From NCBI GenBank assembly GCA_040881855.1, contig JBBECM010000073.1:12515-76514 (forward strand): DNA of 64,000 nt. The letters are read 5' to 3'. Shown here piece after piece: positions 5,980 to 44,288 of the stretch. The notes under the pieces were generated by a model. It did not search any database. It saw only the letters and a program-made list of their open reading frames with translations, and was not told where the DNA came from. Both the position numbers and the translations under genes were made by a program. This stretch comes from Chthoniobacterales bacterium. Its GTDB lineage: Bacteria; Verrucomicrobiota; Verrucomicrobiia; Chthoniobacterales; JACTMZ01. Each line of letters begins with the position of its first letter. Positions within the stretch are counted from its first letter, which is position 1.

Positions 5980-5994
5980 GAAGAAAACCGGATC

Positions 5995-7122
5995 CTAACC
6001 GGCCTGCAGGCTGGCGAGAAACCTTTTGAAAAAATCAACGCCGGCTTTGAGATCATCCACCGCGATGAATTCGTTTTCGGTGTGGGCCTGCGCGATGGAA
6101 CCGGGTCCGACAGCCACGGCCGGCGTGCCGCGGGAGGAAAAGATGGCCGCGTCGCAGAACCACGCGGCGCCGGCGGGCCGCCCGCCCGCTTCGATCAATT
6201 GGCCGACCAGCGGGTGCGAGGGGTCGGTGTCGAGCGCCTCGGATCCGGCGATGCGGCTCACGGCCAGGCCCGGGCAGGCGGCGCGCATGACTGCGAAAAC
6301 GGATTCCGCCTCGCGGTCCTTCCACTGAGCGGGGAGCAAACGCAGATCGACCACCGCCTCGGCGTGGTCGGGCACGATGTTGAATTTCGTTCCGCCGCGG
6401 ATGGTGCCGATGCTGAAGGTCGGATGGCCCAGGACGGGATCGTCGATCGCGGCGAAAGACGCGGCCAGAGCTTCCTGCAAGGAGAGCAATCCCGCGGCGA
6501 GCTTGATGATCGCGTTCTCACCGCGTTCGGGACACGAACTGTGCGCCGAGCGGCCCGTCGCGGTGATCCGCGCGGTCACATCGACTTTGTGTTTGTAGAC
6601 GACCTCCAGACCCGTGGGTTCGCCCACCACGACAAAAGCAAACTCCTCCTCCGCGGCCAGCGCCTTGGCCCCGTCCTGCCCGGCCTCCTCGCCCATCAGC
6701 CCGGCGAACCAGATTTCGTGGGTGAGGCGCGGCAGAAGATCGCGAGTCTCGTGCAGGGCCCAGAGCATGGCGGCCATCGGCCCCTTGGTGTCGCTGGCCC
6801 CGCGCCCGTAAATTTTCCCGTCGCGCAACTCCCCGCCGAACGGATCGATGGTCATGCCCGCCACGCTGACCGTGTCCGTATGCGGGGCAAGGAGCAGACG
6901 CGGTTTGCCCGGGGCGGGGAAGCGTCCGACCACGTTGGGGCGTCCGGGCTCGACCGGACGCAGCCCCGCCTCCGCCCCGAGGGAGCGGAGAAATTCCGCG
7001 ACGAATTCCGCGCAAGCCTCTTCGCCGGTGCGGTCGGTGCCGGGGTCGCCGTCGGGATTGACGCTGGGAATGCGGATCAGCGCCTGCGCCAGTTCCACGA
7101 CGGAAGCGGGCGCCGCGCTCAT
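5995..7122 (-). CDS. M20 family metallopeptidase (ArgE/DapE-type deacylase)
   Basis: Motifs LLLAPHTDTV, GRGASDTKG and GLMGEEAG (metal ligands). Track ORF trimmed to the ATG at 7122 (MSAAPASVVELAQALIRIPS), which overlaps the upstream stop as ATGA. Confidence 0.85.
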   Translation of the reverse strand: MSAAPASVVELAQALIRIPSVNPDGDPGTDRTGEEACAEFVAEFLRSLGAEAGLRPVEPGRPNVVGRFPAPGKPRLLLAPHTDTVSVAGMTIDPFGGELRDGKIYGRGASDTKGPMAAMLWALHETRDLLPRLTHEIWFAGLMGEEAGQDGAKALAAEEEFAFVVVGEPTGLEVVYKHKVDVTARITATGRSAHSSCPERGENAIIKLAAGLLSLQEALAASFAAIDDPVLGHPTFSIGTIRGGTKFNIVPDHAEAVVDLRLLPAQWKDREAESVFAVMRAACPGLAVSRIAGSEALDTDPSHPLVGQLIEAGGRPAGAAWFCDAAIFSSRGTPAVAVGPGSIAQAHTENEFIAVDDLKAGVDFFKRFLASLQAG

Positions 7123-8069
7123 GCCGCAGTGGAACGGAACCACTCGACGAATTTCGGGATGCCCTCGGCGATTTTGGTCCGCGGCTGGTAACCCAGCAGC
7201 AAGCGCGCCTTGGAGATGTCCGCCCACGTGGCCGGCATGTCCCCTGGTTGGTCGGGTTGGCGGTCGATGACCGCTTTTTCGCCCGTCGCATCTTCGATGG
7301 CCGCGATCAATTCGCGCAGCGAGGTGGTTTCCGACTCGCCGATGTTGAAGATATCGAAGTCGGCACGCCCGTAGTCGGCGGCCCCGCGGATGCCTTGCAC
7401 AACGTCATCCACGTAGGTGTAGTCACGGCGACTGGTGCCGTCGCCGTATTGGGTGATGGGACGTGCCTCATGGATGGCACGGGTGAATTTATGGATGGCG
7501 AGATCGGGGCGCTGGCCGGGGCCGTAAACGGTGAAGAAGCGCAGGACGACGACCGGCAGGCCGTGGAGGTGGGAATAGGTGGAACACAGTTGCTCGCCGG
7601 CCACCTTGGTCGCGGCGTAGGGACTGTAAGTGCGGCGCAGAGCGGCGCTCTCGCGGAAGGGGACCTCGTCGGTCGCCCCGTAGACGGACGAGCTGCTGGC
7701 GAAGAGGAATTTCCCCGTGCCGCCCCGCACCGCCGCGTCGAGGACATTCACCGTGCCGAGCACATTGGTCCGAGCGTAGAGGGAGGGTTGTTCGATGGAC
7801 GGACGGACGCCGGCGCGGGCGGCGAGGTGGAGGACAACGTCCCAGCCGGGGGCGAAAGCCCGGGCGACCGCCTCGGGGTCGCAGATATCGCCTTCGAAGA
7901 GTTCCGCTTCGGCCAGACCGGCCATGTTGCAGCGCTTGACCTGCGGGTCGTAAAAGCTGTTGAAATTGTCAAGGACCCCCACTTTCCAACCTTCCCGCAG
8001 AAAAAGGGCGGCCGCATGGGAGCCGACAAAGCCGGCGCCGCCGGTGATAAGGATACTGCGTCGGGACAT
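7119..8069 (-). CDS. NAD-dependent nucleotide-sugar epimerase/dehydratase (SDR, extended)
   Basis: Rossmann motif ITGGAGFVGSH, catalytic YSPYAATK (YxxxK), and RFFTVYGPGQRPD typical of UDP-sugar 4-epimerases. Confidence 0.9.
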   Translation of the reverse strand: MSRRSILITGGAGFVGSHAAALFLREGWKVGVLDNFNSFYDPQVKRCNMAGLAEAELFEGDICDPEAVARAFAPGWDVVLHLAARAGVRPSIEQPSLYARTNVLGTVNVLDAAVRGGTGKFLFASSSSVYGATDEVPFRESAALRRTYSPYAATKVAGEQLCSTYSHLHGLPVVVLRFFTVYGPGQRPDLAIHKFTRAIHEARPITQYGDGTSRRDYTYVDDVVQGIRGAADYGRADFDIFNIGESETTSLRELIAAIEDATGEKAVIDRQPDQPGDMPATWADISKARLLLGYQPRTKIAEGIPKFVEWFRSTAA

Positions 8070-17482: not shown

Positions 17483-19909
17483 ATGTTCTGGCGCGCCCTG
17501 ACCCATCATTCGCTGAAGACGGTGGCCCGTCTCCTGCAACTGATCGTTTTCGTCGTCGTGCCGGGCGCCCTCCTCTGGCTGCATTTCGCCGGTCTGCCGC
17601 GCGCACTGCACGCGCCTTTGGTCGAGGCCGCGCGCCGCGAAGGCCTCGACATCGATTTCACGCGGATACGCCTTAGTTTCCTCCAGGGCTTGGTGCTCGA
17701 CCGCGTGGAGTTGCGCGCCGAGCGCCTGCCGGAAGCGCCGGACGTGGCGGTGGACCGCGCGGCCATCGCGCTCAATTGGCGCGAACTGCTCCGGGGGCGG
17801 GTCGAACTGACCTCGCTCGACCTGCGCGGCGCCCAACTCTTCCTGCCGGTTGTCTCGGCCGAGGGGGTGACGCGCACGCTGCGGCTGACCAAGGCACGGG
17901 CCCGCTTGATGCTGGCCGACGGCGTGGTCAGCGTGCCGCTGGCCCGTTTCAACCTGCAGGGCATCGATGTCACCGCGACGGGCCAGATCGCCTTGGCCCG
18001 GGACGCGGTCCCGGCCGCACCCGCCGGTCTCGTGCCGCCCGAAGTGAGCCATGCCCTCGAGGTGCTCGAATCGCTCGACTTCGGCACAACCCCGCCGCGT
18101 CTGGAAGTGGAATTCGCCGCCCAATCCGGCAACGCCGCCGCGCTGCGCCTGCCGCGCATCTCCCTGGAGGCTCCGCAGGCGTCCTACGGACGCGCCGGCT
18201 TGCGCGACATCCGCGTGCAGGCATCCTACGGGGAGCACGGGCTGGAAGTCGCGCAGTTCACCGCGCGCGATGCCAAGGGCGGGCAACTCGATGTCTCGGG
18301 CACGTGGAACCTGACCGGCGGCGGCGCGCAGGCGGAGGTGGAATCGACCCTCGACCCGGCCCCGTGGCTCGCGGAACTGCGTCCGGAAGGTCCGTGGCGT
18401 TCCTTGAGCTTCGGTGCTCCGCCCGCCGTGCAAGCCTCGCTCGAAATCGAGCCGGACCGCCAACCCCGGATGCGAGTCATTGGAACCTTGGACGCCCGGG
18501 CCCTGTCCTTCCGGGGCGCGGACTTGCGCGGCTTGTCCTGCGGGTTCGCCTGGCGCGACGGGGAACTCTACGCGAACGACATTCTGCTCAAGCCGGCCAC
18601 GGGCGAAATCCGGGCGGACTTCATGATGCGGCCGGAGGAGGTCAAAATCCGTGTCATCAGCCGCACCGATCCCCTGCAACTGCTGCCGCTGTTGCCCGAG
18701 AAGGCACGCGAGAATGTGGGCAAAATGGAACTGGCCTTCACCGACCCGCCGGAGATCCGGTTTGAAGCATCGGGGCCCTCGCTGGACGCGGCCTCGTTGT
18801 CCGCACGCGGACGCCTCAAACTCGGGCGGACGTCGATCCACGGTTCCCCGCTGGACGGGGCCACGGCCGATGTGGCGTTCGAGAACCTCGCGCTCCTTTT
18901 CACCAACTTGCAGGTCACCCGGCCGGAGGGCGAGGGCAGCGGGAGCTTTGTTTATGACTTCGGACAAAACCAAGTGCGGCTGACCGGCATCCGCAGCACG
19001 ATGAATCCGTTCAATGTCCTGCAATGGGCCGACCCGAAGGTGGCGCGCGAGACGGAACCCTACCGCTTCAAAGCCCCGCCCACCGTCACGGTCGACGGCG
19101 TCATCGGGCTGAAGAATCCCGAGCTGACCCGGTTGACCGCCGCGTTCACCGCGCCGCGGGGTCTGGACTACGACCTGCTCGACCGCACGCTGAATTTCGG
19201 CGAGACCCGCGGCACGCTGCAATTCGCCGGGCGCCGCATCGCGGTCGACATCCCGGCGGCACGGTTGTTCGGCGGCACCGCGCGCCTCACCGCCAACATC
19301 ACGGCCGGCGAAGCCGGCGCGCGGCAGCGGATGAGCGTGGTATTGGATAATGTGGACTTCGAAACGGTGACGCGGCTGTATTTCGACTACAAGGATTCAA
19401 AAGGTGTTCTCGATGCGGACTACGATTTCACCTTTGTGCCCGGCCGGCCCAAACTCATGCGCGGCCGGGGGCGCTTGCTCGTGGCCAACGGCAATGTTTT
19501 CGCCATCCCGGTGCTCGGTCCGCTCTCCGTCCTGCTCGACGCGGTCATTCCCGGCACCGGCTACCAGACCGCGCGCAAAGCGACCTGCGATTTCCGGGTG
19601 GCCGACGGCGTGATCCGCACCGACAACCTCGACGTCGAGGGCCAGGGCTTCAGTATGATCGGCAAAGGCGACCTCCTCTTCGTCGAGGACCGCATGGATT
19701 TCACCGTGCGGGTCAACGCCCAAGGCGTGCCGGGCCTGCTGCTCTATCCGGTGAGCAAACTCTTCGAGTATGTTTCGGACGGAAAACTGTCCGAACCGAA
19801 GTGGCGACCGCGCGTCCTGCCCAAGGGGGCGGACCGCGACCGCGCGCCCGCGGAAAAGGAACAACCCGCGGAGCCTAGCGCAAAAGCAAAACGGCCCGGG
19901 CGCGCTTGA
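17483..19909 (+). CDS. AsmA/TamB-like large envelope protein (N-terminal membrane anchor)
   Basis: N-terminal TM ([17 protein letters not shown]) followed by ~770 aa of beta-rich sequence with repeated 'L.L....' strand patterns typical of the AsmA-like/DUF3971 families. Composition is far more natural than that of the antisense 584-aa ORF. Confidence 0.72.
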
Positions 19910-21048: not shown

Positions 21049-21945
21049 TCACGAACCGGGCAGCGGCACGGGGCGATCACCTATCTTGTCGGCCTCCATC
21101 TGCGCCTTTTCTTCCTCGCCCGGGGTGTAAGGCCGGCCGCCGGAGACGACCACTGTGCCGCCGGATTGCTTGATCAGCCGCGGCCGGGTCCCCGCCTCGA
21201 CGTAAAACTGGCGGTCGATCACTTTTCCGTCCAGATCGAGGTGCGTGTAAAGGAACTGCTTGGGCGCGTTGTTCTGCAGGATGTGGATCTCGTTGCGCGT
21301 GTCGAGGATGACACTCGGCCGGCCGAAGGTGAGAAAAGGTCCGAGCTGGTGCGTGGCGTAAATGCGCCCGTTCTCGCGGTCCTCGATACGCGCGTAAAGG
21401 CGCGTGCTGCGTGACAATTTGTGCGAAAGCAGCGTGATGGTGCGCAACTCGGGCCGCCCGTCGCCGCCGGGGACACCGACGACTTCCTGCCAGATGGGCC
21501 GGCCCTCGGTAATCTCCACGGCCAGCGGCGGCGAACTGAAGAACCTTCCGAATTCGGCGACATAGACCGAAGCCCGGACGCGGTAGAGACCGAACTCCTG
21601 CAAGGGAAACAAGGGCGTGAGGTTGAACGCGGCGGGCAGTTTCTCGCCGGCCTCGACCGCCGCAGGCGGGAAAGAGTAGTCGGGGTCGACCGGGGGAATG
21701 ATCCGCCCGTCGGCCGCCTCGATGTTGAAACTCAGCCAGCGATGGTCGGCCGTGTTGTCGAGCAGGAGTTGGCGCCCGCTCAGGTTGTGCACGGTCACCG
21801 CGGCGATGAGCGGCTCATACATCACGTAGAGCTTCCGCTTGAAGCTGATGTCCACGCGTACCTGCGCCGCCGCCTGCTCGGCCGCGCCGGCCAACAGCAA
21901 CAAACCCGCGACAAGCGCGAATCGGGATGGAATTCGGAGGATCAT
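21049..21945 (-). CDS. secreted hypothetical protein (all-beta)
   Basis: Signal peptide MILRIPSRFALVAGLLLLAGAAEQAAAQ. The start overlaps the upstream stop (ATGA). No family recognised. Confidence 0.7.
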   Translation of the reverse strand: MILRIPSRFALVAGLLLLAGAAEQAAAQVRVDISFKRKLYVMYEPLIAAVTVHNLSGRQLLLDNTADHRWLSFNIEAADGRIIPPVDPDYSFPPAAVEAGEKLPAAFNLTPLFPLQEFGLYRVRASVYVAEFGRFFSSPPLAVEITEGRPIWQEVVGVPGGDGRPELRTITLLSHKLSRSTRLYARIEDRENGRIYATHQLGPFLTFGRPSVILDTRNEIHILQNNAPKQFLYTHLDLDGKVIDRQFYVEAGTRPRLIKQSGGTVVVSGGRPYTPGEEEKAQMEADKIGDRPVPLPGS

Positions 21946-23867
21946 TGCGGGGGCGTGTCAGACACGGTGCGAAATCCCAGTGTATCCTGCTGTTGCAAAG
22001 GGTCCAGTATAGCCCGCCGGCGCGTGACGTGGTGTTCGGGGTTGCCCCAGTTGCCGCCGCGCACGACCGGCACCTCGTCGCCCAGGCCCTCCTCGTGGGG
22101 AGCGAACGTGGCCGTCCATTCCGAAACATTGCCGCCCAAACCCCGCACGCCGTAGGGACTGACGTCGCCGGCCGGCTGGTTGACCGGTGACCAGCGCTTG
22201 TAGCCGTCGAGATCCCCGCCTTTCTTCGGGTCGGGGTCGTAATCGTGGCCCGTGCCCGCCCGCGCCGGATCCTCTTCATTGCCCCAGGGGTATTTGCGGG
22301 CATCGGTGCCGCGCGCGGCTTTTTCCCACTCCTGCTCGGTCGGAAGGCGGCGGCCTCTCCACTTGGCGTAAGCATAGGCGTCGAACCAGTCGACATTGAA
22401 GACCGGGGAGTCGACTTCGAGCGCGGCCTCCTTGAATTGCTTCCAGCGCACCGCGCGCGTGTAGTAACCGGGCATCGGCGGGGTCAAAGCATTGTTGTCG
22501 GCCCAGTCGAGCGGCACGTGCCATTTTCCCTCAGGCATGTCGGGGTGCGCGAAATTTTTCGCCTCGTCGGGATTGGCCTCGAGAAAATCAAGGAACTCTT
22601 TGTAGTCCGCGATGGTCACCTCGTGCTCGTCGATCCAGAAGGCGGGCAAAGCAATGCTCTCCCCGTCCTGGTAGACAAACTCGCCGGCGGGAATTTCGAT
22701 CATTTTCGTCACCACCGTGCGCGTGCCGCCGGCGAAGAAACGCAACAAAGCGAGCACCCCGACCAGCAGGAGGAGCATGGAGAGAGCGGCGGTGATCAGG
22801 AGACGCTTCTTCTGCTGTCGCTTGGATTGCTCGACGAGTTCCTTGGATTTCGCGGCGCGCGCGCCGAGGCGTCCGGCGTCTTTGGGTGCGGACACCGGCT
22901 GCGCCGCGTTCGCCGTTTGCAGGGCCAGCGCCCAGTCCGGCCGGTCCGCCTCCTGCAAGGTCGCGGCCGCACCCGCCGCCGCGCCTCCCGGGGCGGCGAG
23001 CTGCCCGATCACCGCGGCGAATGCGCGCACTTCCGAGCCCTCGTCCGGCGGGGTGACCACCCCCGACTGCGCGAGATTGGCCAGACGCGGGCGCAGCGAG
23101 CCATCGAGCAGCACATCACCGGGCTCCAACCGGCGGCGCCCGAGACCCTGCTGCCCGAAGTGCCCGGACACCTCGGCTGCCGTGCGCATGGCCGCGAGCA
23201 AAACCCGGTCGTCAAGTTGGTGACCGGCCGCGGCGTAAGCAGCGAGGGTGTAACCGGGGACAAAATCCGAACTGTAAAAATAGTGGCCGTCCGCCTCCCC
23301 CGCTTCGTGCACGGCGAGGAGGTAAGGATGGGTCACCGCGGCCTTGGCCCGGGCATCGGCGAGGAATTTTTCGACCGCCGCCGGCTCCGCGGCTGCTTCG
23401 GCGGAAAGCGCGTGGAGGAGGACATGGCGGGACATCGACGCCTGCCACGCAAGGTAGTCCACCGTTCCCGCCCCCTCCCCGGCCGGCTCCTGCAGGTAAT
23501 ACGCGCCCAAGTTCATCCCCGGGGCGAGCCCCTGCGGGGCAGCGAGCACGGCAACCAGTTGCTCGCGTGTCACCGGCTTGGCCAGCACCGGGGCGCCCGC
23601 GGTCCGGTCGGCGTGGCCGGAAAGGTCGTAACCGCTGAGAAAAACCGTCCGCATGCGCGGGAACTCGGCCGCCAGCATGTCGCGGAGGCGGAATCCATCC
23701 ATCGGTTCCATGACCACATCGGTCACCAGCACATCGGGTCCGCCCCAAGCACGGGCCGCTTTGAGCGCGTCGCCGCCGGTCGAAGCGGTGCGCAGTTCGA
23801 ACCCGTCGAGTAAAGCGCGCCAGGCGTCGAGGACATGTTCCTCGTCGTCGACCAGCAGGATTTTCAT
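21942..23867 (-). CDS. multidomain protein: response-regulator receiver + degenerate Ser/Thr kinase-like (pseudokinase) + TM helix + FGE/SUMF1-type domain
   Basis: REC: MKILLVDDE, LVTDVVMEPMDG, FLSGY, LAKP. Kinase-like: GEGAGTVDY...VLLHAL (no Lys), HPYLLAVHEAGEADGHYFYSSDFVPGYTL, RRRLEPGDVLLD (no HRD Asp), ANLAQSG (no DFG). TM: LLITAALSMLLLLVGVLALL. FGE: WIDEHEVTIADYKEF, RLPTEQEWEKAARG, GNVSEWT, RGGNW, GFR. Confidence 0.85.
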   Translation of the reverse strand: MKILLVDDEEHVLDAWRALLDGFELRTASTGGDALKAARAWGGPDVLVTDVVMEPMDGFRLRDMLAAEFPRMRTVFLSGYDLSGHADRTAGAPVLAKPVTREQLVAVLAAPQGLAPGMNLGAYYLQEPAGEGAGTVDYLAWQASMSRHVLLHALSAEAAAEPAAVEKFLADARAKAAVTHPYLLAVHEAGEADGHYFYSSDFVPGYTLAAYAAAGHQLDDRVLLAAMRTAAEVSGHFGQQGLGRRRLEPGDVLLDGSLRPRLANLAQSGVVTPPDEGSEVRAFAAVIGQLAAPGGAAAGAAATLQEADRPDWALALQTANAAQPVSAPKDAGRLGARAAKSKELVEQSKRQQKKRLLITAALSMLLLLVGVLALLRFFAGGTRTVVTKMIEIPAGEFVYQDGESIALPAFWIDEHEVTIADYKEFLDFLEANPDEAKNFAHPDMPEGKWHVPLDWADNNALTPPMPGYYTRAVRWKQFKEAALEVDSPVFNVDWFDAYAYAKWRGRRLPTEQEWEKAARGTDARKYPWGNEEDPARAGTGHDYDPDPKKGGDLDGYKRWSPVNQPAGDVSPYGVRGLGGNVSEWTATFAPHEEGLGDEVPVVRGGNWGNPEHHVTRRRAILDPLQQQDTLGFRTVSDTPPQ

Positions 23868-26466: not shown

Positions 26467-28428
26467 TCAAGCCGACCCGCGGCGCAACGCGTCCGCGTGC
26501 AGCCAGTCCCAGAGACGGTCGATCGAGCCTTGCACCCGCACCCGGGCCGCCGCCACCTCGTCCGCGGTCATCTTCCGCCCGGGCGGCTTTTCCACCCCGA
26601 AAATATAATATTTGATCTTCGGCTCGGTGCCGCTCGGACGAACGGCACAACGGCGCCCACCGGCTAGCGTGAAAATGATCATGCCCTCGGCCGGGATACG
26701 CTCGCCCTCCACATCGTGGATAATATCCACGGCGAAATTTTCCACCTTCACCACCTGGACGCCATCCATCACGGACGGCGGATCCTCCGCGTAAGACGCC
26801 GCCAACTTCGCGATTTGCGCCGCACCCTCCGCACCTTCAAAGACAAGCGACTCGCCGCGTTCGAGGTAAACACCGAGCGTGGCGAAAATATCGTCGAGAT
26901 ACTCCATCGCGGTCATCCCCTTCGAGCGGGCGGAGGCCACCACCTCGGCGAAACCGGCCACCGCCGCATTGGCATCTTTGTCGCGGGCGAAATCCGACAA
27001 GGTGTAGCCGTAGCTTTCCTCGCCACCCATGACCATGAGCGAAGAATGGGCCAAGCGCAGCCGCAGCGTTTCGTCCTCCGGCAAATGCGGGTAATCCGCT
27101 CGCAGCTCGGCGGGAATGCCCTCCTCGTATTTGCGCAGCTTGGCCGCATTGTATTTGAAACCGGTCAACGTTTCCACGCAGCGCAAACCGAAGTGCTCCG
27201 CCACCGCTTTCTGCAGGTCGGTCGTGACATAAGTCTTGATGATGACCGCGCGCGATTTGTTCGACTCGTCGAGAATCCCCAGTTCGAACATCCGCGACGC
27301 CCGGTAGTAAGCCAGCATCGAGCCGATCTGGTTGCCGGTCAGGAGCTCCATCCGCCCCGCGCGGTTGCGCGCAGCCACACCCATGCGGTCGTCGTCCGGA
27401 TCGGTGGCCATGACCAAATCCGCGCCGATCTTGTCGGCCAGCGCGACGGCCATGGTCAGGGCTTCCGCATATTCCGGGTTCGGTGACTTGACCGTGGGGA
27501 ACCTGCTGTCCGGCACGAGCTGCTCGGGCACGGCCGTCGCGTCGAAGCCCAGCCGCTCGAGCAAAGGCATCACGATGGAAGCACCCACGCCGTGCAGCGG
27601 GGAGTAGACGATTTTCAGCCCGCGCTCGCGCGCGACAAGTTCGGGATCAAGCACCACACGCTCAAGACGGTCGAGGTAAGCCTCGTCCATTTCCGCACCG
27701 AGGGTCCGGCGCAGGCCCTGCTCGCCGGACGGCAGCGGGTCGAAATGCGCACTCTTCACCGCATCGACCTTGGCGATGATGCCCGAGGCATGCGGTTCGA
27801 CAACCTGGCCGCCGTCCTCGAAATAAACTTTGTAGCCGTTGTAAGCCGACGGGTTGTGGCTGGCCGTGATGTTGATGCCGGCCGCGGACCCCGTCTGCCG
27901 CACGGCGAAACTCAATTCCGGGGTCGGGCGCGGCTCGGCGAAAACCAGCGCGTCGCACCCCGACCCGGTGATCACCTTCGCCGCCAAGTCCGCGAACTCG
28001 CGGGAGAAAAAACGCGTGTCATAGCTGATGCAAATGCGCGGGCGGTGCGGGAGTTTTTCGCGGGCCGCCCATTCTTTGACATAAGCAACCAGCCCCTGAG
28101 TCGCCCGGCTGATGTTGAAGTCGTTCATCGCGTTGGTTCCCGTGCAGGGGAACTCCGGACGGTCGAGAGCCTGCGGCGTGCCCCGCTCCGCGGCAGTCAC
28201 CACGGCTCCGATCGTTTTGCCGCGCAGCCCGCCCGTGCCGAAGGCCAGGGTGCGGAAAAACCGGTTGTTCAACTCGGCCCAGTCGCCCGACTCCGCCAAC
28301 TCGGCGATGCTCGCCTTCTCCACCTCCTGCGGATGGCCGGCCAGCAGCGCCCGGATGTTTTCCAGGGACGACGCGAGCAGGGCTCCGCTTTGCGCGCCCT
28401 CTTCCAGCCGGCGGGACAAGTCACTCAT
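26467..28428 (-). CDS. phospho-sugar mutase (phosphoglucomutase/phosphomannomutase family)
   Basis: Active-site loop GINITASHNPSAYNGYKVY, metal loop ATDPDDDRMG, and GEESYG. Track ORF trimmed to the ATG at 28428 (MSDLSRRLEEG). Confidence 0.9.
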   Translation of the reverse strand: MSDLSRRLEEGAQSGALLASSLENIRALLAGHPQEVEKASIAELAESGDWAELNNRFFRTLAFGTGGLRGKTIGAVVTAAERGTPQALDRPEFPCTGTNAMNDFNISRATQGLVAYVKEWAAREKLPHRPRICISYDTRFFSREFADLAAKVITGSGCDALVFAEPRPTPELSFAVRQTGSAAGINITASHNPSAYNGYKVYFEDGGQVVEPHASGIIAKVDAVKSAHFDPLPSGEQGLRRTLGAEMDEAYLDRLERVVLDPELVARERGLKIVYSPLHGVGASIVMPLLERLGFDATAVPEQLVPDSRFPTVKSPNPEYAEALTMAVALADKIGADLVMATDPDDDRMGVAARNRAGRMELLTGNQIGSMLAYYRASRMFELGILDESNKSRAVIIKTYVTTDLQKAVAEHFGLRCVETLTGFKYNAAKLRKYEEGIPAELRADYPHLPEDETLRLRLAHSSLMVMGGEESYGYTLSDFARDKDANAAVAGFAEVVASARSKGMTAMEYLDDIFATLGVYLERGESLVFEGAEGAAQIAKLAASYAEDPPSVMDGVQVVKVENFAVDIIHDVEGERIPAEGMIIFTLAGGRRCAVRPSGTEPKIKYYIFGVEKPPGRKMTADEVAAARVRVQGSIDRLWDWLHADALRRGSA

Positions 28429-28517
28429 GGGGCGGGGAATATAGACATCGGCGCGGCGGGAGGGAAGCCCGAGCCCCGCGTTGCGGAGGCGGTGCTCCAC
28501 GCTTAGAGTCTCCGGCC

Positions 28518-37086: not shown

Positions 37087-38052
37087 TCAGTTGGCCACGG
37101 CCGCGCGCGCTTCGTCGGCCAGCGCGGTGCTCAGGTAGCGCTCCCCGGTCGAACAGGCGATGGTCACGATGAGCTTGCCCTTGTTTTCGGGACGGCGGGC
37201 CAACTCCAGCGCAGCCTGCACATTGGCGCCGGAACTGATGCCTCCGAGGATACCTTCCTCCTTGGCCAAACGGCGCGCCATGGCGAAAGCGTCGTCGTTC
37301 GAAACGGTCAACACTTCGTCGACCACGTCGAGATGGAGGTTGTCCGGAACGAATCCCGCGCCCGTGCCCTGGATTTTGTGCGGACCGGGCTTCACCGGCT
37401 CGCCGGCGCGGGTCTGCGAAATGACCGGCGAATCCTTCGGCTCGACCGCGACAATTTTCACGCCGGGTTTGCGTTTCTTGAGCACCTCGCCCACGCCGGT
37501 GCAGGTGCCGCCGGTGCCGACCGCGGAAACAAAGATGTCGACCTTGCCGTCGGTGTCATCCCAAACCTCTTCCGCCGTGGTCTTGGCGTGGATGGCGGGA
37601 TTGGCCGCATTTTTGAATTGCTGCGGCATCCAGCCGTTCGGCGTCTTCTTGAGAATTTCCTCCGCCTTGGCGATCGCGCCTTTCATGCCCTCCGGTCCGG
37701 GCGTGAGGACCAACTCGGCCCCGAGCATGGCGAGCAAGGTGCGGCGTTCGACGCTCATCGTCTCGGGCATGGTGAGAATGAGTTTGTAGCCCTTGGCCGC
37801 CGCGACAAAGGCCAGAGCGATGCCCGTGTTGCCGCTGGTCGGCTCGACGATGACCGTGTCTTTTTTCAGGATCCCTTTCTTCTCGGCGTCCTCGATCATG
37901 GCCATGCCGATACGGTCCTTCACGCTGCCCAGCGGGTTGAAAAATTCGCACTTGAGGGCCACGGTAGCGCCGGCGCCGGCGGTCACTTTGTTCAATTTGA
38001 CCAACGGCGTGCGGCCGACGGTCTCGACGATGTTGTTGTAAAGTTTGCCCAT
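37087..38052 (-). CDS. cysK: cysteine synthase A (O-acetylserine sulfhydrylase)
   Basis: [24 protein letters not shown] lysine in [21 protein letters not shown], and GTGGT. Track ORF trimmed to the ATG at 38052. Confidence 0.93.
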
Positions 38053-38140
38053 GTCTGCGGATCCCACTCCGCAGCGGGTCTTTCTGCATACGGCCAACGC
38101 CCCGCGGAAGCAACGTCGGATTTACCCGCCCGGCGCGGCC

Positions 38141-40102
38141 TCAGAGGCCCCCGCGGACAACGCGAAAGACGTGCGCGACCCTCTCGGCGGGGTCCAGTTC
38201 CACATAGTTGCGCGACCCGTGCCAGGTCCAACGCTCGCCGGTGAGCAGATCCTCCACCACGTAGTCCGCATCCCAAGCCAGCCCGTATTCCCAAAGCGGC
38301 CACTCGACGGCGGCTGTCTGCCAGGTGGACGGGTCGAGATTGACCGCCACGAGCAGGAGGTTGCCGCCCGTCGCTTTGGCGAAAAAAAGGATCTGGTCGT
38401 TCTCCGCCGCGTGGAAGCGGAGGTTGGTCAGGTGCTGGAGGGCCGGATTGGCGCGGCGGATCGCGTTCAACCGCGCGACGAAGGCCTTGATGTTGCCCGG
38501 CGCGCTCCAATCGCGCTGCTTGAATTGGTATTTCTCGCTGTCGAGATACTCCTCGCGTCCGGGCAGAGCGGAATTCTCGCACAACTCGAAGCCGCTGTAG
38601 ATCCCGTAGAGCGGCGAGAGCGTGGCGGCCAGCACCGCGCGGATCATGAACGGTGCCCGGCCGTCCTGCTGCAGGAAGAACGGCAAAATGTCCGGCGTGT
38701 TGGTGAAGAAGTTCGGACGGAAATAATCGGCCGACCACGGTGCGCTCACTTCGGACAAGTATTCGGTCAGCTCCGACTTGGTGTTCCGCCAGGTGAAGTA
38801 GGTGTAGCTCTGCGAGAACCCGGCCTTGGCCAGCACGCGCATCATTTTCGGCTTGGTGAAAGCCTCGCTGAGGAACACCAGATCGGGAAACTTGGACCGT
38901 GTTTCCGCAATGAGCCATTCCCACATCGCCACCGGCTTGGTGTGCGGATTGTCGACGCGGAAGGTGCGCACGCCGCGCTTCGCCCACCACAAGATCACGT
39001 CGCGCAGTTCGTTCCACAGCTCCTGCCACGACGCGTTGTGGTAATCGAGCGGGTAGACGTCCTCGTATTTTTTGGGCGGATTCTCCGCGTATTTGATCGT
39101 CCCGTCCGGACGGTGGAAAAACCACTCGGGATGTGCAGCCACATAAGGATGGTCGGGCGAACAGTTGAGGGCGAAATCCAGCGCCACCTCGAGCCCGCGC
39201 TTTTTCGCCTCGCCGACCAGCCATTCGAAATCTTCCAGCGTCCCCAACTCCGGGGCAACATCGCGATGCCCGCCGCCGTGCGGACAACCCAGGTGCCGGT
39301 TGCCGATGGCGTAAGGAACGCCGGGATCACCCGGCGCGCATTCCAACGCGTTGTTGCGCCCCTTGCGCTTGGCCGTGCCGATCGGATGGACCGGCGGGAA
39401 ATACACCACGTCGAAACCCATCGCCTTGGCATCGTCGAGGCGGCCGAGGCAATCACGGAAAGTCGAACCGCGGTCACCGTGCCCCCCGGCCGAACGCGGG
39501 AAAAATTCATACCACGCGGCGAAGAGCGCCGCCTTGCGCTCGACCATGATGCGGCCGTAGGGAGGGAAGTCGCTCCCGATCGAGCGGTCGGGATATTTCG
39601 CCATGATCGCGGCCAAGTCGCGCCGGCCCGCGATGACACTGGCTGGCCCGCGGTCCGTTGCTTCGCGCAATTGCGCGGCCGCGCCGCGGAGGATGGCGGC
39701 GTCCGCTTTTTTCGCCCGCGAAGCCCCTTGTTCGAGGAGTTCCGCGCCTTCCAGCGCCTCCGAACCCAGATCTTGCTGGCCGCCCTGGTGTTTCCGCCGG
39801 AACTCGTCGCGCCATGTCTCGTAGGTGTCGAGCCAGGCCTCGACGGTGTATTCGCAGTCGCCGATTTCGGTCACGGTGAAGGAACCGGACCACACGTCGT
39901 TCTCGCCCGGCTTCATCGGCGCTTCCCGCCACGTCTTCGCGCCGGTCCTGCGCCATTTGACCACGGCGGCAATCACATCGTGGCCATCCTTGAAGATGTC
40001 GGCGGTGACGTGCACTGGATCGCCGACGAGGCGCTTGATGGCGTAGCGCCCGCAGTCGAGCAGCGGGCTCACGTTCTCGATGACGATGGCGGTCTTTTTC
40101 AT
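38141..40102 (-). CDS. glgE: alpha-1,4-glucan:maltose-1-phosphate maltosyltransferase
   Basis: GlgE-specific blocks: IENVSPLLDCGRYAIKR, YEFFPRS, VYFPPVHPIG, FRVDNPHTKP, FFRPNFFTNTPDIL. Track ORF trimmed to the ATG at 40102 (MKKTAIV), which overlaps the upstream stop (ATGA). Confidence 0.9.
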   Translation of the reverse strand: MKKTAIVIENVSPLLDCGRYAIKRLVGDPVHVTADIFKDGHDVIAAVVKWRRTGAKTWREAPMKPGENDVWSGSFTVTEIGDCEYTVEAWLDTYETWRDEFRRKHQGGQQDLGSEALEGAELLEQGASRAKKADAAILRGAAAQLREATDRGPASVIAGRRDLAAIMAKYPDRSIGSDFPPYGRIMVERKAALFAAWYEFFPRSAGGHGDRGSTFRDCLGRLDDAKAMGFDVVYFPPVHPIGTAKRKGRNNALECAPGDPGVPYAIGNRHLGCPHGGGHRDVAPELGTLEDFEWLVGEAKKRGLEVALDFALNCSPDHPYVAAHPEWFFHRPDGTIKYAENPPKKYEDVYPLDYHNASWQELWNELRDVILWWAKRGVRTFRVDNPHTKPVAMWEWLIAETRSKFPDLVFLSEAFTKPKMMRVLAKAGFSQSYTYFTWRNTKSELTEYLSEVSAPWSADYFRPNFFTNTPDILPFFLQQDGRAPFMIRAVLAATLSPLYGIYSGFELCENSALPGREEYLDSEKYQFKQRDWSAPGNIKAFVARLNAIRRANPALQHLTNLRFHAAENDQILFFAKATGGNLLLVAVNLDPSTWQTAAVEWPLWEYGLAWDADYVVEDLLTGERWTWHGSRNYVELDPAERVAHVFRVVRGGL

Positions 40103-41046
40103 TGCGCGGCGGCACGGATGGCGCCGGCCAGAGGTTGCCATGCGGCTTCGGCCTCGCAAAGCCCGGCCAATCGTTCGGCCGCCACCGGAATGTGGGCCAG
40201 GAACGCCGTCTTGCCCTTGGTTTTGCCGAGGAAGCCGTAGGCCCCGAGCGCCTGCATCAATCTCTGCCGCGCGCCGGCGTTCAGTTCCTGCTCCCAAGCG
40301 GCGCGGTCCGTGCGTCCGGCCAGGCCCGCATAAATCGCAGACAACTCTTCACGCTCCCCCGGCGTCATTTGCACATACGGGTCGTAGAGCAGCGACGCCA
40401 CGTCATAACCGGCCAGACCGGCACGCATGCCTTGGAAGTCGATCAAGGTGACCTCACCGTCGTGCACCATGACATTCTGCGACTGCAGGTCGCGGTGGAC
40501 AATCACGCGCGGGAGCGCAGCCAGACCCTCCGCCTGGGCCTCCAAGGGAACGGTGGCGCGCCAGTGCGCCGCTGTTCCGGCTCCGAGGAAATTCTCGAAA
40601 AAATAATCCTGCTCCCAGCGGTAAAGTGCGCCATCGAACGGCTCGCGCAAAACGTGCTCCGCCTCGGCCGGCGGCAAATCAAGAGCATGCATCCGCGCGG
40701 CCTCGCGCAATGCTTTGGTGTAGAGATCGCGCCGCACCGGCCACGGCTCCTCGCGGTGGGACCAGAGGTCCTCGGTGCCGGCGTCCTCCATGAGCAAGCG
40801 GCGCCACTCCGCGTCGTGGGCCAGCACGGCAGGCACGCGAAGACCATGACGGTGCAGGAAATCGGCGCAATGCGCGTAGCGGCTGTTCTCCGCTTTCTCC
40901 AGACCGTAGAAAACCGCGATCAAACCGGAGGCCGCGCCGCGGCCGCGCCAGAACTGACGGTCGGATCCCCCGTGGTTGACCGGCACCCACTGGCCGCCGG
41001 TCGCGGCGGGATGGACGGATTCGACCCAGGCGAAAAGTTCCTTCAT
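40099..41046 (-). CDS. APH-fold (aminoglycoside phosphotransferase-like) sugar kinase, AmgK/NahK/maltokinase-like
   Basis: Catalytic loop VIVHRDLQSQNVMV and metal-binding LIDFQGMRAGLAGYDVASLLYDPY, which closely resembles the anomeric sugar kinase pattern HRD.HS.N / IDFQD...YDL.SLL.D. ATG at 41046 overlaps the upstream stop. Confidence 0.8.
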   Translation of the reverse strand: MKELFAWVESVHPAATGGQWVPVNHGGSDRQFWRGRGAASGLIAVFYGLEKAENSRYAHCADFLHRHGLRVPAVLAHDAEWRRLLMEDAGTEDLWSHREEPWPVRRDLYTKALREAARMHALDLPPAEAEHVLREPFDGALYRWEQDYFFENFLGAGTAAHWRATVPLEAQAEGLAALPRVIVHRDLQSQNVMVHDGEVTLIDFQGMRAGLAGYDVASLLYDPYVQMTPGEREELSAIYAGLAGRTDRAAWEQELNAGARQRLMQALGAYGFLGKTKGKTAFLAHIPVAAERLAGLCEAEAAWQPLAGAIRAAAQ

Positions 41047-42020
41047 ACCACCGTGTCTTTGACTTCGCCGGCCGCGATCATGCCCTCGCGCACGACCGAC
41101 CCCTCGACGACCGCGCCCGGTTCGACGCGGCTGCCGGCCCAGAGGATCGAGTTCGTGACACGCGCACCCGCCCCGACATGGGAGTCCGGTCCGCACCAAT
41201 TCCATCCGCCCATCGCGGCATCCGCCGCCACTTCCGCGCCCGGCAGGCGCCAGACCGGCCAGCCGGACGGAGCCGTCGCGGGCGGGGTGACCTTCGCCGT
41301 TCCCGCCGCGAAGTCTGCATGCACGCGGAGGTATTCCGCGATGTTCCCGATGTCGCGCCAGATGCCGTCGTCGAGAACCACGCCGGCAATTTCCCCCCCC
41401 GAACGGAGCACCTCGAGCCACACCGGCACGAAGGAAACCGGTTGGCCGGAGGGAATCCGCGGCAGCAATTCCGGCGCAACCACGCACACGCCGGTGTAGA
41501 GAAAACGCGGATCGGTGGAACCCAACTCACCGCGAAAATCGGTGACCAAGCCGCGCGCCGCATCAAAGGCCACCCGCATCTCGTCCCCCGAAGACCGCAG
41601 CGCCAGCGTGCACAAGGCACCGCTCCCGGCGTGCGCGACGAAGAGCGCGGCAAGATCGACCTCGGCCAGAATGTCGCCGTTGTGCACCAGCACCGGTCCG
41701 GGCAGCAAAAGATCCTCCACGTTTTTCAATCCGCCCGCCGTTTCCAGCAGCACTTCCTCGTGGCGGAAATAGACCGGAACACCCGCATAGCGGGACGGAG
41801 CGGGGTATTCGGGAAACAACCGGATGAACTCGCCCGGAAGCCGGTGCGTGTTGATCACGATCCGCTCGACGCCCGCCGCGGCAATCCGCGCCAGGGCAAA
41901 CTCGCACAGCGGCACACCGCAGACGGGCACCAGCGGCTTCGGGATCTGGTTGGTCAGCGGCTGCAGACGCTCGCCCCAACCCGCACAGAGCACGAAGGCC
42001 GTCCGCGGCACCGCGCTCAC
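41043..42020 (-). CDS. sugar-1-phosphate nucleotidyltransferase with C-terminal left-handed beta-helix
   Basis: N-terminal VLCAGWGERLQPLTNQIPKPLVPV (G.G.R..PLT...PKP). The C-terminal hexapeptide-like repeats (VGAGARVTNSILWAGSRVEPGAVVEGSVV) resemble those of GlmU/GMPP-type enzymes. The GTG start overlaps the GNAT stop. Confidence 0.85.
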   Translation of the reverse strand: MSAVPRTAFVLCAGWGERLQPLTNQIPKPLVPVCGVPLCEFALARIAAAGVERIVINTHRLPGEFIRLFPEYPAPSRYAGVPVYFRHEEVLLETAGGLKNVEDLLLPGPVLVHNGDILAEVDLAALFVAHAGSGALCTLALRSSGDEMRVAFDAARGLVTDFRGELGSTDPRFLYTGVCVVAPELLPRIPSGQPVSFVPVWLEVLRSGGEIAGVVLDDGIWRDIGNIAEYLRVHADFAAGTAKVTPPATAPSGWPVWRLPGAEVAADAAMGGWNWCGPDSHVGAGARVTNSILWAGSRVEPGAVVEGSVVREGMIAAGEVKDTVV

Positions 42021-42493
42021 GAGGCCCCGCCGCCCCCCGGCTCGAGAAGAAGGCGCATCGTCACCATCTCGGACAGCTTGAAACCGTGCTTGCGGTAGAA
42101 CTCGACAAGGCTCCCGTCGCCGCGGTGCGTCAGGAGCGTGATGCGCAGGAAATTTTTCTTCTGCGCGAAATCGATGGCATGACGCAGGAGTCGCGCCCCG
42201 TGGCCCTGGCCGCGGTGATCGGCACGAATGACAAGATCCTCGAGCACGACGACAAATCCGCCTTCCGCCGTGCTGATGGTGAAGAGCAAATTGATCATCC
42301 CGATGATGCGGAGGCTGTCGCGCAACACGAAAATCCTTCCGCGGTTGGGTTGCTCGAGAATGAGGCGCAGGCCGCGCATCTGTTTGTCGTAATCCGGACG
42401 GAAATCCGGCTCGTGCGAGAACAAATCGGCCAGCAACTCCGCGAGCAAGGGCAAATCCTCGAGGGTGGCCGGTTCGATGCGCAGATCGGGCAT
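42017..42493 (-). CDS. GNAT-family N-acetyltransferase
   Basis: Acetyl-CoA motif A VIRADHRGQGHGARLL. 158 aa. Track ORF trimmed to the ATG at 42493. Confidence 0.85.
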   Translation of the reverse strand: MPDLRIEPATLEDLPLLAELLADLFSHEPDFRPDYDKQMRGLRLILEQPNRGRIFVLRDSLRIIGMINLLFTISTAEGGFVVVLEDLVIRADHRGQGHGARLLRHAIDFAQKKNFLRITLLTHRGDGSLVEFYRKHGFKLSEMVTMRLLLEPGGGGAS

Positions 42494-42545: not shown

Positions 42546-44288
42546 TCAGGCACGCCCGAATTTCCGGTCCAGTTCCCGCCAAGAAAACTGCAGCATGACC
42601 GGACGCCCGTCGGGGTCGCAGTAGGGCAGCTCGCAAGCCAGCAATTGCGCGACCAGCGCCCGTTGCTCGCGTTCGTCGCGCGCCCCCTCGCCGCCGACCG
42701 CCAGCCGCGCCACTGCCCGGCGCACCGCGTCCGCGGCGTCGGGCCCGCGCGGACGTCCGGCCGCCAGGCAGCCCGCCGCAAAGTCCTCCATCACCCGGCG
42801 GGGATCGCGCCCGGCGAGAAAATCGGGCAGGGCCTCGACCTTGAGCGAGCGGCCGCCGAAAACCTCCACACCGAAACCCGCCGAAGAGAGGACCCCGAGA
42901 TTCTCCGCCACGGTTTCATGATCGCGCGGGGGAAGTTCGAAAACCTCCGGCACGAGCAGGCGCTGGGCGGCCACCCCGCCTTTTTCCACCCCGCGCTGCA
43001 ACCTCTCGAAGAGCACCCGCTGGTGCGCCGCACGCTGATCGAGGAGGACAAGGCCCTCGGCACCCTCGAGGAGCAGGTAGCGGCGCGACAACGATCCGAC
43101 GAGACGGAATTCCAGCGGGGCCGCCGTGCGCGGCAGCGGGGTTTCCGTGGCGGTGGCGGTCGGGGAAGCAGCAGCCGGAAGGACGGGGCGCGGCAACTCC
43201 GGTTGGTGCACCGCCTCCGGGATCGGCGGCGGGACAGGCGCCGGCGACTGCAAACGCGCCGCCACATGCGTCCGCAGCGGTCGCATCCACTCGGCACGCG
43301 CCGCGCGCAACGCCCCCTCGACCGCCGTCCGCACCGCCTCCCGCACGGCAGCACCTTGGCGGAAGCGGACCTCGCGCTTGGCCGGGTGCACATTGCAGTC
43401 GACCGCGCGCGGATCCATGGCGAGATACAGGTAGACCGAGGGATGGCGCCCGGGTTCGAGCATCTGGCGGTAAGCCTCGCGCAGGCCGGATGACAGAAAA
43501 ACGCTCTCCACGGCGCGCCCGTTGACGAAAATAAATTGCCGCCCACGGTCGGCCCGCGTCACCCCGGGGCGCGAAACCAAACCGGCCACGCGCACGCCAT
43601 GCACCTCGGTTTCCGGCACCTCCAAAAGATCCTTGGCCTCTTCCGCACCATAAAGATCGGCCACCCGCGGCCCCGGTCCAAGGGCGGCGGCCGCGCGGAA
43701 TACAGTCCGCCCGTCGCGCACGTAGTGGAAAGCCGCATCCGGCCTGGCCAGCGCCGCCGTCTCCACCGCCCGGTCGAGGTGCGCCGTCTCGGTCGCGGCG
43801 CTGCGCAGGAATTTCCGCCGCGCCGGCACGTTGAAGAAAAGCGATTTCACCTCGACCGTCGTCCCCGGCGGGCAGCCCGCCTCGCGCACCGCGACCAGCT
43901 TCCCGCCCCGGACCACCGCCTCCGTGCCCGCGTCAGCCCCGGCCGGCCTCGTCCGCAAGGTCAATTCCGACACGCTCGCGATGCTCGGCACCGCCTCGCC
44001 GCGGAACCCCATCGTCCGCACATCGGCCAGATCCGCCGCCGTGGCGATTTTGCTCGTGGCGTGCCGTTCCAGCGCCAGGAGCGCATCTTCCCGGTCCATC
44101 CCCGCCCCATCGTCGGTCACCCGCAGTAAAACCGTGCCCGCACCGCGCACCTCGACCTCCAGCGCGACCGCGCCCGCATCGAGACTGTTTTCCAGCAACT
44201 CCTTGACCACGGAGGCCGGACGCTCCACCACCTCGCCGGCCGCCACCTGGCTGGCCACCTCGTCGGAGAGCACTCGTATTTTACCCAC
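42546..44288 (-). CDS. mutL: DNA mismatch repair protein MutL
   Basis: GHKL ATPase N-terminus (VAAGEVVERPASVVKELLENSLDAG, DDGAGM, GFRGEAVPSI) and a C-terminal dimerisation/endonuclease-type domain. GTG start. Confidence 0.92.
   Translation of the reverse strand: MGKIRVLSDEVASQVAAGEVVERPASVVKELLENSLDAGAVALEVEVRGAGTVLLRVTDDGAGMDREDALLALERHATSKIATAADLADVRTMGFRGEAVPSIASVSELTLRTRPAGADAGTEAVVRGGKLVAVREAGCPPGTTVEVKSLFFNVPARRKFLRSAATETAHLDRAVETAALARPDAAFHYVRDGRTVFRAAAALGPGPRVADLYGAEEAKDLLEVPETEVHGVRVAGLVSRPGVTRADRGRQFIFVNGRAVESVFLSSGLREAYRQMLEPGRHPSVYLYLAMDPRAVDCNVHPAKREVRFRQGAAVREAVRTAVEGALRAARAEWMRPLRTHVAARLQSPAPVPPPIPEAVHQPELPRPVLPAAASPTATATETPLPRTAAPLEFRLVGSLSRRYLLLEGAEGLVLLDQRAAHQRVLFERLQRGVEKGGVAAQRLLVPEVFELPPRDHETVAENLGVLSSAGFGVEVFGGRSLKVEALPDFLAGRDPRRVMEDFAAGCLAAGRPRGPDAADAVRRAVARLAVGGEGARDEREQRALVAQLLACELPYCDPDGRPVMLQFSWRELDRKFGRA

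Follow-up and report, generated by a model that had tools for sequence, protein, structure and literature searches.

The 64,000-nucleotide stretch examined here, referred to throughout as the window, comes from the metagenome-assembled genome (MAG) of a freshwater member of the Chthoniobacterales (Verrucomicrobiota, class Spartobacteria). On its minus strand, from 42493 down to 38141, four open reading frames (ORFs) follow one another with stop/start overlaps of 4 nt, as read from the sequence. They encode a GNAT-family acetyltransferase, a sugar-1-phosphate nucleotidyltransferase (NTase), a kinase of the APH fold, and GlgE, which uses maltose-1-phosphate (M1P) as its donor (Table 1). Our main concern is the junction between the last two genes, which is kept well beyond the closest relatives, and the family to which the kinase in front of GlgE belongs.

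Genes at the locus

According to Pfam and NCBIfam, the four proteins carry, in order, Acetyltransf_1, NTP_transferase, APH, and GlgE_dom_N_S plus GLGE_C. Their lengths (158, 325, 315 and 653 aa) agree with those of homologs (158, 323-325, 315-317 and 649-666 aa). The gene identities and overlaps given in a preliminary description of this DNA are borne out, with coordinates, junctions and domain assignments all matching the sequence, Pfam and NCBIfam. Its implied placement of the DNA in the Opitutales is not: the window kinase matches a protein from the MAG listed at NCBI as 'Chthoniobacterales bacterium' with 100% identity, and the relatives are likewise Chthoniobacterales, which rules that origin out.

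Taken alone, the overlaps are weak evidence for a functional unit, since 4-nt overlaps are ordinary in so compact a genome, occurring at about 9 of the 51 junctions that heuristic gene calls give for the window. The co-directional string is, moreover, longer than four genes, because mutL and cysK lie close on either side; cysK follows GlgE in some close relatives only. A promoter and terminator scan returned sites no more numerous than in shuffled sequence. Homologs of TreS, Mak and GlgB were not found in the window, either by tblastn with the Bosea proteins or by Pfam searches of the ten largest other ORFs, in agreement with the earlier claim that treS, glgB and mak are absent from it.

Table 1. 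Genes, overlaps and flanking genes of the string, in window coordinates
Feature	Position	Strand	Remarks
Sugar-1-phosphate nucleotidyltransferase (NTase), NTP_transferase + C-terminal LbH	41043..42020	-	325 aa; GTG at 42020, stop 41045-41043
AmgK-family anomeric sugar kinase (predicted), APH/protein-kinase-like fold	40099..41046	-	315 aa; ATG at 41046, stop 40101-40099
GlgE, alpha-1,4-glucan:maltose-1-phosphate maltosyltransferase	38141..40102	-	653 aa; ATG at 40102, stop 38143-38141
ATGA overlap, kinase stop / GlgE start	40099..40102	-	Sequence reading; kept in at least 15 kinase-GlgE loci
ATGA overlap, NTase stop / kinase start	41043..41046	-	Sequence reading; same -4 junction in most close relatives
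GNAT-family N-acetyltransferase	42017..42493	-	158 aa; ATG at 42493, TGA at 42019-42017
GTGA overlap, GNAT stop / NTase start	42017..42020	-	Sequence reading
mutL, upstream context outside functional unit	42546..44288	-	TIGR00585, 495 bits; ends 52 nt upstream of string
cysK, downstream context	37087..38097	-	TIGR01139, 467 bits; 43 nt after GlgE

Conservation of the kinase-GlgE junction

A survey with the kinase profile covered 80 species-level genomes, almost all of them Chthoniobacterales MAGs, with 75 loci that had enough sequence; individual loci are cited by number. GlgE comes straight after the kinase in all of the close relatives L001-L011, whose kinases are 63-87% identical to that of the window, and is 2.6 kb away in L012. 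Beyond this close clade, it directly follows the kinase in L052, L068, L070, L073, L077, L078 and L082, and lies 1.1-1.7 kb from it in L018, L039 and L065. In 33 loci overall, GlgE comes after the kinase; a 4-nt ATGA/GTGA overlap is kept in at least 15 of 31 of these, the distant L073, L077, L078, L082, L086 and L115 included, and also in L173 and L174. The junction is kept down to roughly 45% kinase identity and 52% GlgE identity, and occurs in 13 of the 80 species-level genomes plus independent metagenome contigs. In a neighbor-joining tree of the kinase, the GlgE-linked loci are spread over at least five separate branches and, the NTase apart, they share few or no other neighboring gene families. 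The preliminary description had proposed to look for this junction in relatives, its loss there being the mark of a chance adjacency. Because the junction is conserved (33 loci), that refutation fails, and the succession of kinase and GlgE is not a product of chance.

The pair persists without an NTase upstream in L073, L077 and L078, where rsmE, a divergent GT1-type gene and ham1 are the upstream genes. The divergent gene, L077:6685-7821 (minus strand), encodes a glycosyltransferase (Glyco_trans_1_4, E 4e-7; nothing in NCBIfam) that is similar to GlgM in size, and is transcribed away from the NTase-less pair. GlgE also follows two of the four fused NTase-kinase genes examined (L086 and L087). 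On the long contigs L173 and L174, where GlgE identity is 63%, the order is FG-GAP protein, NTase, kinase and GlgE, again with the 4-nt overlap. This FG-GAP/VCBS-repeat protein of about 600 aa precedes NTase-kinase-GlgE in a Terrimicrobiaceae-like lineage (L173, L174, L087, L070 and L082), and in the first three of these its gene runs 4 nt into the start of the NTase gene. Within 10-kb flanks, TreS occurs in none of about 90 kinase loci, and Mak and GlgB were likewise not found in any of them.

The kinase

In Pfam the kinase matches APH only (9e-24). The two catalytic motifs quoted in the preliminary description, HRDLQSQNVMV and IDFQGMRAGLAGYDVASLLYD, are present, and HRDLQSQN together with IDFQG supplies the HRD..N catalytic loop and DFx metal-binding motif of the APH/protein-kinase-like fold. 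The best NCBIfam models are two for AmgK (NF045759 and NF045698), at 42 bits each against cutoffs of 550 and 500. These models are narrow, since the AmgK of Xanthomonas sacchari, which lies beside a PGAP-annotated murU, reaches only 259 bits and the AmgK-type kinase of Parabacteroides distasonis (Bacteroidales) only 71; other Chthoniobacterales members of the family score 82-96. Use of a Tannerellaceae homolog as an AmgK-type reference is supported by the finding that T. forsythia AmgK/MurU is functional when expressed in E. coli (PMC13041923). The P. distasonis gene (L092:4923-6353, NZ_OY725790.1) is annotated 'RNase adapter RapZ', a name that suits only the C-terminal part of its product (NCBIfam RapZ, 106 bits, residues 330-465) and conceals a kinase domain of the AmgK type at residues ~30-328; the gene after it encodes a MurU-like NTase.

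The family profile A1 gives 172 bits with the P. distasonis kinase and 120 with X. sacchari AmgK, so that it recognizes AmgK-type kinases from two further phyla (E 4e-38 and 4e-54), but only 4.5 bits with the Bosea TreS-Mak protein, where the catalytic loop alone is aligned. Of 66 kinase columns conserved in the family, 22 are common to both AmgK-type references and 29 to one of them. Searched against PDB sequences, A1 finds one strong relative, 3csv (E 8e-38). The AF2 model (pLDDT 96.7) has the APH fold, and its best Foldseek match is again 3csv (TM 0.80), with other chains at or below 0.66 among the matches listed. Neither Mak nor NahK is among the 60 PDB sequence matches listed or the top 50 Foldseek matches listed. 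On the strength of the A1 scores, the PDB profile search and Foldseek, the kinase belongs to the AmgK family of anomeric kinases and is not a relative of Mak/Pep2, as the preliminary description had suggested on the basis of its catalytic loops. Homology to Mak is ruled out by the 4.5-bit score and by the lack of any Mak among the listed PDB and Foldseek matches. Of the marks of a Mak/Pep2 enzyme, Mak-family sequence or fold and fusion or adjacency to TreS are missing, and linkage to GlgE is present (33 loci).

The nucleotidyltransferase and its pairing with the kinase

The NTase carries the GxGxRxxPLT signature as LCAGWGERLQPLT, which is invariant in the family alignment A2, and ends in an LbH tail of about 90 residues, annotated GMPPB_C on orthologs. 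Its best curated model is the Rv3264c-type mannose-1-phosphate guanylyltransferase, man1P_GTase_Rv, at 168 bits (cutoff 440). The MurU models NF045761 and NF045697 give 104 and 73 bits against cutoffs of 250 and 370, with X. sacchari MurU at 265, and the glgC models TIGR02091 and NF002023 give 39 and 47 bits against 425 and 458. Among PDB chains, the A2 profile reaches 151 bits with 8x7s, deposited under the name UTP-glucose-1-phosphate uridylyltransferase, 137 with GMPPB and 127 with MurU (4y7t); MurU structures align to profile positions 2-236 only, that is, to the N-domain. Within this domain, identity is 39% over 121 aa to X. sacchari MurU and 31% over 192 aa to the P. distasonis NTase. 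The minimal MurU is a single domain of about 225-245 aa, as against 325 aa with a C-terminal LbH here. The earlier proposal of a MurU counterpart thus stands as far as homology goes but not in form, the protein being equally near to hexose-1-phosphate NTases; by sequence it is MurU/GMPP-like, with an extra LbH tail, and not a minimal MurU.

The NTase lies directly upstream of the kinase in 63 of the 75 species-level genomes. Among the best 150 kinase representatives at 50% identity, 36 are at least 540 aa long, and 6 of the 10 long ones checked for domains are NTP_transferase+APH fusions. In 49 genomes the pair is present while GlgE is not within 3 kb, so it has a function independent of GlgE. 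NTase and kinase are therefore an old functional couple with the logic of AmgK-MurU, from sugar to sugar-1-phosphate to nucleoside diphosphate (NDP) sugar. The resemblance to AmgK-MurU already remarked on in the preliminary description is in this respect well founded: both genes have their homologs in AmgK-MurU, and in most relatives they are neighbors or form a single fused gene. Of the contexts found for the kinase family, the one that points most clearly to peptidoglycan recycling is L088:5262-9890, where a SpoIID/LytB-domain protein is followed by an AmpG-family muropeptide transporter of the MFS type (TIGR00901, 179 bits) and then by a fused NTase-APH gene, with no GlgE nearby. In two unrelated loci, the cluster is 2-3 kb from dcw genes: NTase-kinase-GlgE comes after murC/murB-ddl-ftsQ-ftsA-ftsZ in L174:1-5718, and the cluster precedes ftsI-murE in L073:10053-15775. 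The L088 context and the dcw proximity point to the cell wall.

GlgE and its usual partners

The window GlgE aligns with that of Streptomyces coelicolor over residues 8-650 (631 bits). It has the N/S domains, GH13 catalytic domain and GLGE_C of the family (PF11896, 184 bits; PF21702, 90 bits, both Pfam) and retains the motifs RVDNPHTKP, SEAFT, NTPDIL and ENPPKKYEDVYP, the residues of which we take to have the roles that they have in the S. coelicolor enzyme. To judge from its sequence, it is a canonical M1P maltosyltransferase (GH13_3). The usual operon partners of GlgE, treS-mak and glgB, are found neither at this locus nor in any sampled locus of this GlgE clade.

The surroundings of GlgE were surveyed in 80 metagenomic loci with flanks of up to 10 kb. 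Behind GlgEs 47-54% identical to that of the window there is mostly TreS, usually with Mak and often with GlgB, as in Bosea. TreS/Mak is nearby in none of the roughly 30 Chthoniobacterales-type loci (57-62% identity), seven of which have an AmgK-like kinase upstream, five of these with the NTase too. About 18 soil metagenome contigs (GC ~0.55; in L093-L113, e.g. L105:6266-12704) conserve the order HTH, GlgE, ExbB, ExbD and large TPR protein, with neither the kinase nor TreS-Mak. A fusion of GlgE with the kinase was looked for in the 120 closest GlgE clusters and in 282 kinase homologs, and none was found.

The GNAT gene

The GNAT protein (Acetyltransf_1, 6.8e-15) has generic matches only in NCBIfam and the PDB, its nearest relatives being generic, polyamine or thialysine acetyltransferases. 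The gene is confined to L001-L011 plus L102, L115 and L116, and in all of these its adjacency to mutL is kept (in L004 as judged by Pfam). In L102 and L116, it sits beside mutL with one gene between it and the NTase. That gene is larB, of the nickel-pincer cofactor, in L116 (4136-4846; NF033503, 282 bits), and the L102 copy (4521-4949), not itself scanned, falls in the same blastp cluster. Because of this limited distribution, its position after mutL, the split from the NTase and its generic relatives, we do not count GNAT in the functional unit; it is peripheral and lineage-specific, and is not supported as a pathway member. The preliminary description had included it in a functional trio, which does not survive its restriction to close relatives, the larB-type gene between GNAT and NTase, and the lack of sugar-specific similarity.

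Other features of the window

A PGM/PMM-family phosphohexomutase is encoded 10 kb away from the cluster, at 26467-28500 (minus strand). In NCBIfam it comes nearest to an archaeal-type GlmM (129 bits, below cutoff), and it could be a source of hexose-1-phosphate or hexosamine-1-phosphate. For two large ORFs on the plus strand, 4618-7191 (857 aa) and 17483-19909 (808 aa), Pfam gives nothing at E<=1e-5. The gene at 21942-23867 (minus strand), which shares 4 nt with each of its neighbors, combines a response-regulator receiver domain with an FGE-sulfatase (sulfatase-modifying-factor-like) domain.

Functional interpretation

The reading we favor among several, although at slightly less than even odds, is that an AmgK/MurU-type salvage pair, leading from sugar-1-phosphate to NDP-sugar, has been inherited in one old operon with an independent, canonical GlgE. 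The kinase would phosphorylate the anomeric hydroxyl of a free sugar to give a sugar-alpha-1-phosphate, which the LbH-tailed NTase would turn, with an NTP, into an NDP-sugar. The sugar would most probably be N-acetylmuramic acid (MurNAc) or N-acetylglucosamine (GlcNAc) from cell-wall turnover, and the product UDP-MurNAc or UDP-GlcNAc, while GlgE would use M1P made elsewhere in the cell. We propose that NTase, kinase and GlgE are co-transcribed and translationally coupled because their order would be ancestral to the Chthoniobacterales. The operon would be kept for co-expression and not for the passage of a metabolite from kinase to GlgE, and GNAT would be a later addition following mutL, with no step in the pathway. 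A salvage module coupled to alpha-glucan synthesis fits the homology evidence better than a non-canonical maltokinase does.

Several observations weigh against this salvage reading. It leaves unexplained the tight retention of the kinase-GlgE junction, with its 33 loci, several kinase-tree branches, at least 15 overlaps and few shared flanking families. In L073, L077 and L078, the kinase has stayed with GlgE and the NTase is gone. The roughly 30 GlgE genes of the clade in the metagenome loci are never beside TreS-Mak, whereas most distant GlgEs are. With its LbH tail, the NTase resembles glucose-1-phosphate and mannose-1-phosphate NTases no less than it does MurU, kinase and NTase both score far below the NCBIfam AmgK and MurU cutoffs, and the substrates of both are predictions.

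The first three of these observations are also what speaks for a rival account, which we regard as possible but doubtful, in which the AmgK-family kinase is a maltokinase, solely or additionally, and so a non-orthologous replacement of TreS-Mak and GlgC-GlgM that supplies the M1P of GlgE; the NTase would then use the same or a second sugar-1-phosphate from the kinase. The succession of kinase and GlgE behind fused NTase-kinase genes (L086 and L087) speaks for it too, as does the lack of TreS, Mak and GlgB in the window and in every kinase locus, set beside the TreS, usually with Mak, that directly follows most distant GlgEs. Chemically, such a reaction would come naturally to an anomeric kinase. 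The 1-phosphates that AmgK-type enzymes produce are alpha-anomeric, and M1P is toxic when it accumulates, so tight coupling of its producer to GlgE would be favored. Even so, the kinase resembles Mak neither in sequence nor, specifically, in fold, the sugars on which AmgK is known to act are of the 2-acetamido type, and fusion with the NTase implies that the sugar-1-phosphate continues to an NDP-sugar. The 49 genomes that have no GlgE within 3 kb carry this orthologous kinase too, its conserved residues unchanged; a large soil clade has its GlgE elsewhere, in the HTH-GlgE-ExbBD arrangement; and a canonical mak could lie elsewhere in these genomes, the neighborhood data covering 10-kb flanks. 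In favor of the maltokinase account, a 2024 review knows only two routes to M1P, TreS-Mak and GlgC-GlgM (PMC11046441). We hold it a minority prospect that in the Chthoniobacterales an AmgK-family kinase took over the supply of alpha-maltose-1-phosphate, possibly beside amino-sugar salvage, as a third GlgE-donor route with producer and consumer translationally coupled.

It seems improbable that kinase and NTase salvage a neutral hexose (glucose or mannose) to an NDP-hexose feeding trehalose or alpha-glucan upstream of GlgE, in the manner of a GlgC-like supply. The similarity of the full-length NTase, LbH included, to 8x7s (151), GDP-mannose pyrophosphorylases (137) and the Rv3264c-type model (168 bits) would suit such a role, as would the PGM/PMM-family mutase 10 kb away, but the kinase falls in the AmgK family, the glgC models give 39-47 bits against cutoffs of at least 425, GlgM/GT4, GlgA, OtsA and TreS are not consistently near the cluster, and the NTase-less kinase-GlgE pairs would go unexplained. 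A single amino-sugar pathway of all four genes, in which the kinase makes GlcN-1-P, GNAT acetylates it and the NTase forms UDP-GlcNAc as in a split GlmU, is very unlikely: the GTGA overlap of GNAT and NTase and the retention of GNAT in the close clade and in L102, L115 and L116 argue for it, but GNAT is missing from most loci with the NTase-kinase pair, is separated from the NTase in L102 and L116 (by larB in the latter) with mutL at its side, and has generic, polyamine or thialysine acetyltransferases rather than sugar N-acetyltransferases as relatives. That glgE is adjacent by chance, the 4-nt overlaps being mere packing in a compact genome, is hardly credible. Such overlaps do occur at about 9 of the window's 51 junctions, and the unrelated mutL and cysK belong to the same co-directional string. 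The notion is nevertheless largely refuted by conservation, since the junction is kept to about 45% kinase and 52% GlgE identity in lineages with few or no other common neighbors, recurs in 13 of 80 species-level genomes and on independent metagenome contigs, and does not trace to one recent lineage in the kinase tree.

Both GlgE and AmgK/MurU are under study, as targets for drugs and as metabolic-labelling tools. If the kinase were a maltokinase after all, the order-wide operon of AmgK/MurU-type genes and GlgE would reveal a new maltokinase family, and AmgK-type kinases would not be confined to amino sugars. If the salvage reading is true, it would establish a co-regulated link of cell-wall sugar recycling with alpha-glucan storage in abundant soil and freshwater Verrucomicrobia.

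Comparison with known systems

Among the papers searched, none names both GlgE and AmgK, and none describes a link between AmgK/MurU-like genes and GlgE. The canonical glgE-treS/mak(pep2)-glgB operon of Bosea, Pseudomonas, Chlamydiae and actinomycetes resembles the window locus in that a bona fide GlgE adjoins an anomeric kinase of protein-kinase-like fold, so that a possible donor-making enzyme is tightly linked to GlgE. The window kinase is, however, unlike Mak beyond the catalytic loop (4.5 bits), is accompanied by neither TreS nor GlgB, and lies upstream of GlgE, whereas canonical Mak lies downstream and is fused to TreS. With the GlgC-GlgM route of mycobacteria, the locus shares an NTP_transferase+LbH enzyme, the architecture of GlgC, linked to GlgE; it differs in that the NTase scores 39-47 bits on glgC models with cutoffs of 425-470, and in that no GT4 GlgM is consistently near, the one weak candidate being the divergent GT1-type gene of L077.

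The LbH-tailed GMPPB, Rv3264c-type and 8x7s NTases have the same two-domain architecture as the window NTase and are similar to it over the full length (137-168 bits), but the latter is below the family cutoff (168 against 440) and NTases of its type are always partnered with an AmgK-type kinase. We know of no such partnership for GMPPB, Rv3264c-type or 8x7s enzymes. The only close solved relative of the kinase, 3csv (E 8e-38, TM 0.80), is a structural-genomics 'aminoglycoside phosphotransferase' from Silicibacter (Ruegeria) sp. TM1040. At 18% identity in the structural alignment and with no assigned substrate, it is uninformative on kinase specificity.

AmgK-MurU, which salvages peptidoglycan sugars in Pseudomonas putida, P. 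aeruginosa and Tannerella forsythia, offers an APH-fold anomeric kinase and a sugar-1-phosphate NTase that are both homologous to those of the window, with genes likewise adjacent and overlapping, and one homolog of the window pair stands beside an AmpG-like transporter. The gene order is reversed, NTase then kinase here as against kinase then murU in Xanthomonas and Parabacteroides. The window NTase has an LbH (GMPPB_C) tail of about 90 aa that MurU lacks, and in many cases genes of the window type form a single fusion that encodes 590-690 aa. The window pair also scores far below the curated AmgK and MurU cutoffs and is coupled to GlgE, which was not seen at the two AmgK-murU loci inspected (Xanthomonas and Parabacteroides). 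AmgK/MurU-like pairs are thus not limited to the Proteobacteria and Bacteroidota; the variant seen here has a reversed gene order, an NTase with an LbH tail and frequent fusion of the two genes.

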